Assembly (NCBI GenBank): GCA_003838145.1
Contig: QYZZ01000078.1
Location: 25,587 to 89,586 of the forward strand
Length of the DNA stretch: 64,000 nt
From: Tindallia sp. MSAO_Bac2
GTDB lineage: Bacteria; Bacillota; Clostridia; Peptostreptococcales; Tindalliaceae
Reading direction: 5' to 3'
Shown here: positions 1,186 to 46,616 of the stretch, one piece after another
How the letters are laid out: each line of letters begins with the position of its first letter
Position numbering within the stretch: position 1 is the first letter of the stretch
The notes under the pieces: model-generated
Database searches by the model: none
What the model was told of the DNA's origin: nothing
The model's input: only the letters and a program-made list of their open reading frames with translations
Translations under genes and position numbers: made by a program

Positions 1186-1616
1186 TTCATCATAAAAACA
1201 GAAAATACTTGTTTATACCTCTCCGAAGCCCTGCCTTGCCCATCGGCACTAAAAGGGAGAGGAGCAGCTTGGTTCATAAATAATGAATTTTTGAATCAAC
1301 ACATATTAAAAAATGTTCCCGTTAAAAGCGGAGAGATTAAAACGGCAAAGCTTCACAGAGTGATTCATTAAAAACTCAACCGATTCAATAATGAATCAAA
1401 AAGAAACGGATTTATAATCGATTATATAAGAACTGTTGGGATTGATAAAAATTGTATACTTAACTCAAATAGTGAAACGAAAATGAAGAATGCGCAATTA
1501 AAGACAATTAATGATAAAATAAAGATAGAGAATTCAAATATCGGCATGTCAGTCTGTTTAGTAAACCGACCGGAGATGAAGAGTATTTCATTTAACAAGT
1601 GAAGGGAGAGAAGCGT

Positions 1617-1955
1617 ATGAAGAAAATCATTGCGTACACCAGCAATACGTGACCACACTGCATCAAAGCGAAGGAGTTTCTTTCGAAAAGCGGATACCTG
1701 TACGAAATTCGGGATGTTGATAAAGATCCGGATGCCAGAGCAGCCTTTACAAAACTGGGAGCCAGAGGAGTGCCTGCCTTCGAGATTGGGGGAGAGCTGG
1801 TGGTGGGTCTGGATCCGCAAAAACTGGAAAAACTGCTGGACTACATCATTAATTCATGTCCAAACTGTCATCGCCGGATGAGAGTTCCAAAAGGAAAAGG
1901 CAAAATACGTGTGACCTGCCCGCATTGTCAGCATAAGTACGTCACAGCAACATAA
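1617..1955 (+). CDS. Selenocysteine glutaredoxin-like protein (UPHC) with C-terminal Zn ribbon, 112 aa
   Basis: MKKIIAYTSNT-TGA(1650-1652)-PHCIKAKEFL...RGVPAFEIGG...CPNC...CPHC in one frame; RBS GGGAGAG; track shows only 1770-1955. Confidence 0.85.
1669..1685 (+). promoter_or_regulatory. Putative bacterial SECIS hairpin
   Basis: CGAAGGA-GTT-TCTTTCG stem starting 17 nt after TGA, G in apical loop. Confidence 0.55.
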
Positions 1956-2007: not shown

Positions 2008-3834
2008 ATGGCTCAAATAAAAATATTATTTATTCAATACGACAAAACAATCAGACTTCCGGCTGGAACGCTGCTATCGGAAGCATGCCGGCAGGCAGGG
2101 CTTCCGATGGATCTGCTGTGCGGCGGTGGCGGAATCTGCGGAAAATGCCGGGTGCTGCTTCAGCAACAGGATCGTTTAGAATCTGTTCTGGCTTGTCAGA
2201 CCCGGGTAATGGAAGATCTGACCGTGGTGATGCCGGAAGGAAAACTGGAAAAACCGGAAAATCAATTCCTGACGGAAGGGGATGGAAGCTGGGAAAAAGG
2301 AAGAAGACTTTTTGTGCCGGCTCTTCGGAAAAAATCCGTCCACAAAGCAGACATAAAGAGGAGTTTGGCCAGCAGCACTGTTGAAGCCATTGAACAGATC
2401 ATCACCCAGGACGACGTTCCCGTCAGTCATTTTGAGGTGCCCTGGCGACAAATGAAACAGTTGGATGAAATGATTTCCAACCCGGAAACCGAAAAGTTTA
2501 CACTTATTCTGAATCAGGGTAAAGTAATGGGGATGCAGGAAGGGGATACTACCAGTCGCTTTTATGGAGCGGCTGTTGATATTGGCACCACATCTCTGGT
2601 GATGTATTTATACGATCTTTTCAGAGGTGAACAGGTAGCCGTATACTCCGGGAAAAATCCTCAGTGCGCCTGGGGTGCAGACGTCATCAGCCGGATTTTG
2701 CATGCTGAAGTTGATAAAGAGGGAGCCCGGGAACTTCAGTTAGCTGTCACCCGGGGAATCAACAGTATGATCGAAGAAGCGGCTGAATCATTTCCGGCAA
2801 TCAGAACGGATCTGTGGCAGCTGGTGATGGGTGGCAACAGTGCCATGCATCACCTGTTACTTGGATTCAACCCGAAAGAACTGGGTCAGAAGCCTTTTAG
2901 AACTCTAAGCCGGCATCAGATAGAAACCAGCGGAAAAGAGTTGGGGCTCTGTGCTCCTGAGCAAACCCGTGTTGTATTTTTGCCCTTGCTGGGAGGATTT
3001 GTGGGGGCAGACATTACAGCGGTACTGCTTTCCATAAAAGAAGATTATCGGCAGAGACTGATAATTGATTTGGGAACCAATGGGGAAATTGCTCTTGGCA
3101 GCGGAACAAAGTACCGGGTTGCATCCACTGCCTGCGGACCGGCGCTGGAAGGTGCAGGCCTAGCCTGTGGAATGCGGGCGACGGCCGGCGCCATAGAAAG
3201 CGTGGATATGAAAAAGGGTCAGGTGAAGGTGGGGGTTATTGGTGGTGGGAAAGCTTCAGGGATCTGTGGATCCGGAGTGGTGGACCTGGTAGCAGAGCTT
3301 CTTCGGAAGGGAATACTGGAAGCTTCCGGCCGCATGCTCGACAGAGACACCTTTGTTCATCAGAACCCCTACAGTCCGCTGGCGGAACGGCTGGTGACGA
3401 TTGGGGATGCGAATGCTTTCATGATTGCTTTTCCTGAAGAAAGCCATAGGGAGGAAGGTGTTTATCTGACTCAAAAAGACCTTCGGCAAATTCAGATGGC
3501 AAAATCCGCCATATATACCGGATGCTTCATGTTGATGGAAAAAGCCGGAATAAGTAAAGAGGATTTAGATGAAATACTACTGGCAGGTGCTTTTGGAAAT
3601 TATATTCATATAGGGAATGCTCAGCAAATAGGCATGATACCATGCTTTGAAGGAGTCGCAGCCAGGTCTGTTGGCAATGCTGCCGGAACCGGCCTGCAGC
3701 AGGTGCTTCTGGACTGCAGGGAAGAAAAATGCGGAGAAGAGCTGGCGAAACAGGCGCTTCACATCGAATTGGCGGAAGATCCTTCCTTTCAGGAACAGTT
3801 CATGAAGCATCTCGAATTTGGGATGCGGAAGTAA
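2008..3834 (+). CDS. ASKHA-domain [2Fe-2S] protein, RACo/RamA-type corrinoid reductive activator (DUF4445)
   Basis: N-terminal CGGGGICGKC..LAC ferredoxin; VDIGTT, IDLGTNGEI, CGPALEG, GICGSG, LAGAFG, GNAAG motifs. Confidence 0.88.
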   Translation: MAQIKILFIQYDKTIRLPAGTLLSEACRQAGLPMDLLCGGGGICGKCRVLLQQQDRLESVLACQTRVMEDLTVVMPEGKLEKPENQFLTEGDGSWEKGRRLFVPALRKKSVHKADIKRSLASSTVEAIEQIITQDDVPVSHFEVPWRQMKQLDEMISNPETEKFTLILNQGKVMGMQEGDTTSRFYGAAVDIGTTSLVMYLYDLFRGEQVAVYSGKNPQCAWGADVISRILHAEVDKEGARELQLAVTRGINSMIEEAAESFPAIRTDLWQLVMGGNSAMHHLLLGFNPKELGQKPFRTLSRHQIETSGKELGLCAPEQTRVVFLPLLGGFVGADITAVLLSIKEDYRQRLIIDLGTNGEIALGSGTKYRVASTACGPALEGAGLACGMRATAGAIESVDMKKGQVKVGVIGGGKASGICGSGVVDLVAELLRKGILEASGRMLDRDTFVHQNPYSPLAERLVTIGDANAFMIAFPEESHREEGVYLTQKDLRQIQMAKSAIYTGCFMLMEKAGISKEDLDEILLAGAFGNYIHIGNAQQIGMIPCFEGVAARSVGNAAGTGLQQVLLDCREEKCGEELAKQALHIELAEDPSFQEQFMKHLEFGMRK

Positions 3835-45947: not shown

Positions 45948-46616
45948 ATGAACAAGGAAGCAAAAAACAACAGTGAAAACAAAAGCCTGAGCCGTAAAGA
46001 TTTTTTAAAGGGAATGGGAACCACTTTGGCAGGTGTTACGCTGTTTGGAGGAATGGGAACAGTCCTGGCCTCATTCAACGAAGCAGAAGCTGCGGAAAAG
46101 TCTGGCATGGAGCATCCGCTTCCCTATAAAAGAATCGATCCTGACAAAGCTGCCGAGAGAGCTTACAAATACTACAAAGAAAAAGGTGGCTGAGGCGTCG
46201 GTACAGCCGAAGGTCTTTTCGGCTACTTAGCAGCAGAAGCAGGATACCCCTACAACCAAATTCCAACGACCATGTACCGTTCCTTTGCAGGAGGCTTTGC
46301 GCTTGAAGCTTCTTTGTGTGGAACTCTGGCCGTTGCATCCGGTTTTATCGGATTATTTACAGTAGACAAGCAAAACCAACTTGTAAAAGAACTGTTTGAC
46401 TGGTACAAACAAGCAGAACTGCCTATATACAACCCGGACTTTCCTGACCATGCAGTAACGGTTGCAGAATCAACTATGTGCTATGACTCAGTTTCTAAGT
46501 TTATTCGGAAAGAAGACGTAGCGTTTCAGTCTCCTGAACGATCCAGTCGTTGCGCCGGGGTTGCCGCTGAAGTTGTGAGGACTACTGCAAAAATCCTTAA
46601 CCGTGAGTTTGCTTAA
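45948..46616 (+). CDS. Tat-signal C-GCAxxG-C-C family selenoprotein (split-Soret cytochrome-like), Sec82, 222 aa
   Basis: Track ORFs 45948-46193 and 46272-46616 share a frame; TGA 46191-46193 in KGG-U-GVGTAEG; open frame after; SLCG, TMCY, SRCAG; SRKDFLK signal. Confidence 0.85.
46205..46224 (+). promoter_or_regulatory. Putative bacterial SECIS hairpin
   Basis: AGCCGAAG-GTCT-TTTCGGCT starting 12 nt after TGA; G first in loop. Confidence 0.7.

Follow-up and report, generated by a model that had tools for sequence, protein, structure and literature searches.

Glutaredoxins with a UxxC active site are among the experimentally verified prokaryotic selenoproteins (PMC9312934, PMC13188914). The closest described system, glutaredoxin 1 (cGrx1) of Clostridium oremlandii, is natively a selenoprotein (U13/C16) and regenerates the selenoprotein MsrA of that organism (PMC4479559). 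Its structures (PDB 7C10, 7C12, and 7C13) are those of a single-domain protein, with a PDB chain of 84 residues, and it bears out the statement, made in a sequence-only reading of the DNA studied here, that UxxC glutaredoxin-like selenoproteins occur in anaerobes. Work on cGrx1 of Clostridium (Alkaliphilus) oremlandii OhILAs was reportedly carried out by Kim et al. in 2011 (Mol Microbiol 79:1194). Two further groups of small reductases invite comparison. The YruB/NrdH-like redoxins, such as BC3987 (PDB 3ZIJ) and Cp9 of Clostridium pasteurianum, are reduced by thioredoxin-reductase-type enzymes. Bacterial thioredoxin-2 (TrxC; PDB 2PPT, 3P2A, and 7D6L) carries an extra domain with two CXXC motifs that binds zinc and is thought to mediate interaction with targets (PMC8615215).

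We analyzed a stretch of 64,000 nucleotides from Tindallia sp. MSAO_Bac2 (the window) and found that an apparently stop-interrupted gene near its start almost certainly encodes a genuine selenocysteine glutaredoxin that ends in a conserved zinc ribbon. With TGA read as selenocysteine, positions 1617 to 1955 of the plus strand encode a 112-residue predicted selenoprotein, MKKIIAYTSNT-U-PHC...GARGVPAF...INS-CPNC-HRRMRVPKGKGKIRVT-CPHC-QHKYVTAT, that has a single in-frame TGA at codon 12 (1650-1652) and ends at a TAA (1953-1955). Residues 1 to 76 (1617-1844) form a glutaredoxin domain of the thioredoxin fold, and residues 77 to 112 (1845-1952) form a predicted C-terminal Cys4 zinc ribbon. A ribosome-binding site, AGGGAGAG (1603-1610, plus strand), ends 6 nt 5' of the ATG at 1617, and AGGAGG-type sites lie 5' of the same upstream start in those homologues of the genome collection whose upstream sequence was read. 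Conservation at the protein level covers the 11 codons 5' of the TGA across all homologues. The stop codon is overlapped by a tandem array of the 7-nt unit CATAATT (5.3 copies, 1951-1987), which precedes the gene that follows.

The U-P-H-C redox motif (U12-P-H-C15, 1650-1661) and the GVP cis-Pro motif (G51-V52-P53, 1767-1775) that the sequence-only reading had picked out are both there, and the latter is invariant in the family. Codon 12 aligns with Cys or TGA in the homologues and corresponds to U13 of cGrx1, with which the window protein shares its fold and a T-U/C-P-H-C site with Sec first (U12/C15 here). Both proteins come from anaerobic Clostridia encoding a selenoprotein MsrA, but cGrx1 lacks the 36-residue zinc ribbon.

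Residues 5 to 62 matched Pfam Glutaredoxin (PF00462) with an E value of 7e-16 and 58.6 bits, above the cutoff of 22.9, and a profile of the family searched against the PDB matched 7C10/7C12, "Dithiol cGrx1," with an E value of 4e-27. An AlphaFold2 model was confident in both domains (mean pLDDT 94.6, pTM 0.81, 107 of 112 residues above 90), and Foldseek aligned it to 7C10 with a target-normalized TM score of 0.87 to 0.88, an rmsd of 1.3 Å, and 44% identity over the glutaredoxin domain. The next structural neighbors were the thioredoxin-like protein BC3987 of Bacillus cereus (target-normalized TM score of 0.82 to 0.85) and NrdH redoxins. The catalytic half thus belongs to a selenoprotein class that is already known and characterized.

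Finer classification leaves the protein below the cutoffs of its nearest NCBIfam families. The best NCBIfam match, the YruB family TIGR02196 (E value of 3e-20), reached 72.5 bits against a cutoff of 88.55, and the protein likewise falls outside the UXX-star families, with 36.3 bits against 66 for NF041212, 21.8 against 72 for NF041114, 19.2 against 100 for NF041211, and 22.2 against 97 for NF047338. We take the UXX-star name to denote a U-x-x-stop layout, whereas the Sec of the window protein sits in U-x-x-C. NCBIfam has no dedicated model for the glutaredoxin-ribbon fusion. Elsewhere in the genome, a separate single-domain glutaredoxin of 75 residues (G000:C49:13177-13398, minus strand) has a T-C-P-H-C site and is very similar to cGrx1 (7C10), so this organism has a Cys-type cGrx1-like gene as well as the Sec-type ribbon fusion.

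The four cysteines of the ribbon, C81 (1857-1859), C84 (1866-1868), C101 (1917-1919), and C104 (1926-1928), are invariant in the family. They are laid out as C81-P-N-C84, a basic R-V-P-K-G-K-G-K-I-R-V-T loop, and C101-P-H-C104; the CPNC-x17-CPHC ribbon described in the sequence-only reading therefore exists, but with a spacer of 16 residues between C84 and C101 rather than 17. Almost the whole loop between the knuckles is constrained, P91 being invariant and K92-G93-K94-G95 nearly so. In the model, four short strands (residues 76-80, 87-91, 96-100, and 107-111), all with pLDDT above 90, and two CxxC knuckles make up a Cys4 ribbon, which is joined to helix 3 by only two residues at a conserved L-L-D-Y junction. 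Every Pfam zinc-ribbon family that matched (Zn_ribbon_4, Zn_ribbon_6, IBR, and others) did so below threshold, as with the 18.2 bits against 30.3 for Zn_ribbon_4, and a search of the PDB found no solved structure spanning both the glutaredoxin domain and residues 77 to 112. From its sequence, the ribbon most likely holds a structural zinc.

Thioredoxin-2 likewise pairs a disulfide reductase of the thioredoxin fold with a small additional domain, which has two further CXXC motifs and binds one zinc. There, however, the zinc domain is N-terminal and is attached to a thioredoxin with a WCGPC site and Cys, whereas the window protein has its ribbon at the C terminus of a glutaredoxin fold with UPHC. 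These differences, with the domain order reversed, place the window protein outside thioredoxin-2; no sequence relationship was found between the two zinc domains, and the likeness is an analogy only.

The ribbon does have close relatives of another kind. With identities of up to 75% across some 28 residues, the basic loop among them, and often with the CPHC knuckle, the same ribbon is the cytoplasmic C-terminal tail of two-helix membrane proteins of 120 to 165 residues. In these proteins (e.g., P0043 to P0050) the ribbon reads (R/L)-V-P-K-G-K-G-K-I-(R/K)-(V/I)-T-C, and two transmembrane helices take the place of the redox domain. They belong to no curated family, and their ribbons likewise scored under every curated Pfam cutoff. 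Their general layout is G-R-x-G-x-D-x-L-S, the two transmembrane helices, R-x-L-S-(K/R)-N...R-x-x-E-N, and, at the C terminus, a ribbon that is almost the same as in the fusion. One such gene is found in the same genome (G000:C74:6260-6664, plus strand), about 19 kb upstream of the start of the window. The ribbon motif occurs in more than 580 species genomes, including those of Clostridia, Collinsella, and spirochaetes; the best 80 loci in a search for it comprised 67 of the membrane type and 13 glutaredoxin-ribbon genes. An obligate pairing of the two proteins is not supported, their co-occurrence in related genomes being weak (both in 8, the glutaredoxin-ribbon gene only in 7, the membrane-ribbon gene only in 6, and neither in 20).

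To judge by thioredoxin-2, the ribbon probably docks a partner. A broader proposal is that it constitutes a portable module, shared by membrane proteins and a rare soluble selenol reductase, that docks to one conserved partner or surface (membrane or nucleic acid), or else a thioredoxin-2-like, oxidant-sensitive zinc switch. We put this forward tentatively and think it unlikely; if true, either form would make the protein part of a targeted Sec-dependent repair or signaling system, not a general-purpose glutaredoxin. For the switch on its own, which the sequence-only reading had suggested, oxidants would oxidize the four ribbon cysteines and release the zinc, and the Sec-containing site would sense or repair this state, switching activity or binding. 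E. coli thioredoxin-2 does free its zinc and change conformation when its two extra CXXC motifs are oxidized by H2O2 (PMC8615215). The gene order in Fusibacter (mutY, the glutaredoxin-ribbon gene, a lipid kinase gene, and genes for hemerythrin, 6-phosphogluconate dehydrogenase, and glucose-6-phosphate dehydrogenase) would also fit a setting of oxidative stress, but this neighborhood is not kept in other lineages. Docking is favored over the switch, which we regard as unlikely, because the most constrained residues of the ribbon, beyond the cysteines themselves, lie on the surface basic loop, as expected of a binding surface, and because the same ribbon sits on membrane proteins without a redox center.

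The Cys4 site might instead hold rubredoxin-like iron and pass single electrons to or from the glutaredoxin site. Two CxxC knuckles are compatible with this in principle, and the best NCBIfam match is to YruB, reportedly first cloned from a rubredoxin operon. We nevertheless consider it quite improbable: the best 25 of 51 Pfam matches (E value of 1 or less) were to zinc-ribbon families and included no Rubredoxin family, the knuckles have neither the CxxCG signature nor an aromatic core, the 16-residue spacer speaks against it as well, and on the membrane proteins the ribbon has no redox partner domain at all. Docking through a zinc ribbon remains our preferred reading of the C-terminal half.

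We next turn to codon 12, which four independent lines of evidence mark as coding for selenocysteine: the Sec machinery, the pairing of Sec with Cys among homologues, the hairpin, and the comparison with the orthologue. TGA ends 5 of the 25 long open reading frames of the window and so is a normal stop codon elsewhere in it. Cysteine homologues with the same fusion, which the sequence-only reading had proposed to look for, do exist, and Cys and UGA forms share one glutaredoxin-plus-ribbon layout: among 13 full-length loci in the species-genome collection, codon 12 is TGA in 5 and TGT or TGC in 8, and among 41 genomes of the order to which the window belongs, the fused gene has TGA in 14 and a Cys codon in 1. 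The selenocysteine machinery on which that reading hinged is complete, with selA, selB, the tRNA-Sec gene, and selD (itself with an in-frame TGA) clustered on one strand (G000:C34:60103-64685) and all scoring above curated cutoffs. In seven full-length database proteins (P0005, P0007, P0010, P0013, P0015, P0017, and P0035), Trp takes the place of Sec (T-W-P-H-C). We checked one of them, P0010, against its contig: the product matches only if TGA is read as Trp, so the residue is a mistranslated TGA. All seven seem to be selenoproteins to which a TGA=Trp code was wrongly applied.

Bacterial SECIS elements typically have a guanosine in a small apical loop, which is their recognized hallmark (PMC1088965). 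The hairpin at 1669-1685 on the plus strand, CGAAGGA-GUU-UCUUUCG, begins 16 nt after the UGA and has this form, with a 7-bp stem (1669-1675 paired with 1679-1685) and the loop GUU (1676-1678). Here the sequence-only reading, which had noted a SECIS-like hairpin, was borne out by comparison: the 16 UGA forms examined all have a hairpin of 6 to 8 bp that starts 18 to 20 nt downstream of the U of UGA and has a G-containing apical loop of 3 to 4 nt (GUU, UGUA, or AGUU). The 9 Cys forms examined all lack it, and mean local folding energies are −7.5 and −0.8 kcal/mol, respectively. Formal covariation in so short a hairpin is modest: the basal pair is C-G in 5 sequences and G-C in 4, but the sequences accommodate a one-base shift of the register to about the same degree. 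The contrast between Sec and Cys forms is for this reason the stronger argument. The fold of the whole region was no more stable than that of shuffled sequence (z score of 0.23), and an Rfam search with the hairpin gave no match. The other recoded UGA in the window (46191-46250, plus strand) is followed by an 8-bp hairpin of similar form with a GUCU loop. The two hairpins are consistent with recognition by one SelB.

The closest relative, P0004 at locus L192, is 76% identical; its codon 12 is TGT, and only 4 bp of the hairpin are left. The two loci share the gene order NhaC, glutaredoxin-ribbon protein, zincin-like protein, and DnaJ, and their fused genes differ at 52 codons synonymously and at 28 nonsynonymously. 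The family tree requires about six changes between Sec and Cys labels overall and places this Cys form inside a clade in which Sec forms number 12 of 13. A recent TGT-to-TGA nonsense mutation that left only an 11-residue peptide or a reinitiated tail would require a single base change from the orthologue's codon, but it can be set aside as very unlikely because the genome encodes all of the Sec machinery along with further genes that contain a UGA (selD and msrA), Sec and Cys are paired across homologues, the 7-bp hairpin common to all other UGA forms is kept in the window and lost in the Cys orthologue, the reading frame is open before and after the TGA, has a ribosome-binding site, and shows a synonymous excess, and the nesting of the window gene and its Cys sister among Sec forms makes Sec the likelier ancestral state.

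The best explanation of the whole, which we hold to be very probable, is a functional selenoprotein gene with hairpin-directed Sec at position 12, encoding an oxidoreductase of the cGrx1/YruB branch of glutaredoxin-like proteins that docks through its zinc ribbon. The hairpin, lying within the coding sequence, would recruit SelB and Sec-tRNA-Sec, and UGA codon 12 would be decoded as Sec. The 112-residue product would act as a thiol/selenol-disulfide oxidoreductase with a chemistry homologous to that of cGrx1: Sec12 would be the nucleophile attacking an oxidized substrate (disulfide, sulfenate, or selenenylsulfide), Cys15 would resolve the mixed intermediate, and the resulting Se-S bond would then be re-reduced. 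The rigidly attached Cys4 ribbon, with its basic R-V-P-K-G-K-G-K loop as the docking surface, would direct the reductase to its partner or target.

Re-reduction would more likely depend on a thioredoxin-reductase-type enzyme than on glutathione, because the genome has two thioredoxin-reductase-like genes (G000:C82:44290-45204 and G000:C6:90969-91859) and, in a search with two Pfam families of this 97% complete genome, neither a glutamate-cysteine ligase gene (gshA, PF04262) nor a glutathione synthetase gene was found above cutoff. The YruB/NrdH-like proteins are small CxxC redoxins, as is the glutaredoxin domain of the window protein, and the window organism likewise has no detected glutathione synthesis gene; they differ in having Cys rather than Sec and no ribbon. 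This hints, if weakly, at a reductant of the kind that serves NrdH, BC3987, and Cp9.

We compared gene neighborhoods across lineages and found no conserved operon partner that would point to a substrate. In the window, the gene directly downstream (2008-3834, plus strand), between the glutaredoxin-ribbon and zincin-like genes, encodes a RACo-type corrinoid reductive activator of 608 residues (2Fe-2S ferredoxin, RACo middle, and ASKHA domains), in which Fer2 and RACo domains were matched, and no terminator was found between it and the glutaredoxin-ribbon gene. A functional link to this gene was considered and rejected: it is absent from all 13 homologous loci, lies elsewhere in the related genome G005, and is missing at the syntenic locus L192. 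Since it is absent from the same position at that otherwise syntenic locus, its presence in the window looks like a lineage-specific insertion or loss. In another clade a divergent Pol IV gene lies beside the glutaredoxin-ribbon gene, and the remaining neighborhoods are unrelated; together with the Fusibacter gene order, this is a hint of oxidative or DNA damage stress that does not hold in general. In two Bacillota metagenome-assembled genomes (L018:3178-5004 and L019), a 608-residue protein that joins a MutY-like part (HhH-GPD and NUDIX_4) to a C-terminal GNAT acetyltransferase is encoded upstream of a Cys-type glutaredoxin-ribbon gene. The MutY-like and GNAT parts are separate genes in Fusibacter.

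Selenoprotein MsrA, the substrate of cGrx1, was also considered as a partner. The MsrA gene of this genome lies outside the window (G000:C15:12565-12975, minus strand) and carries a TGA in frame at the codon of the catalytic residue (G-L-G-U-F-W-G), as does the selenoprotein MsrA of C. oremlandii. Within the order, the 9 genomes with Sec-containing MsrA all belong to the window's own family (its own genome and all eight others sampled), and this form was not found in the other families. It is present in 6 of the 14 genomes with a UGA-type glutaredoxin-ribbon gene, the eight others having only Cys-MsrA; the UGA-type gene also occurs in four other families that have only Cys-MsrA, and three genomes of the same genus have Sec-MsrA without the fused gene. 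The fused gene thus does not track Sec-MsrA across genomes, whereas cGrx1 reduces selenoprotein MsrA, and a specific partnership with it is not supported.

The family consists of proteins of 112 to 116 residues with the same two-domain layout. Of 399 genomes sampled from the class, 9 have the fused form. In a set of 1.84 billion cluster representatives (50% identity), about a dozen clusters matched over the full length and a similar number were truncated. The architecture that the sequence-only reading had called unusual is therefore rare, yet other genomes share it: it characterizes a small conserved family, the Cys members of which are present in databases as "glutaredoxin family protein." Our literature search found no description of a selenocysteine glutaredoxin fused to a zinc ribbon, and recent selenoproteome catalogues (including PMC9312934 and PMC13188914) contain the UxxC glutaredoxin and not the ribbon fusion. 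The fused tail is thus a recurrent variant, found described nowhere in the papers and catalogues searched, of a selenoprotein type already known and biochemically characterized.

Annotation has obscured the UGA-bearing members. In the public protein collection this gene is represented by P0003, which is 97 residues long and begins immediately 3' of the TGA, and gene callers elsewhere yield fragments of 65 to 91 residues of the UGA homologues or translate TGA as Trp. The claim that standard callers truncate the gene to a 61-residue tail was therefore right as to truncation and not as to length, the 61-residue tail (from a GTG at 1770) being the outcome of an ATG/GTG/TTG open reading frame listing.

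Because the UGA-bearing genes are stored as fragments of 65 to 97 residues or with Trp in place of Sec, selenoproteome counts for the order miss the half of the protein that contains the active site. What this locus offers is a reliable annotation correction with a putative targeting domain, rather than a system of a new kind. The experimentally characterized class of selenoprotein glutaredoxins gains a two-domain form, which the nearly identical ribbon ties to a large uncharacterized family of small membrane proteins. Lying in conserved synteny, with the hairpin gained or lost, the Sec and Cys orthologues are a clean natural pair for studying Sec/Cys exchange.
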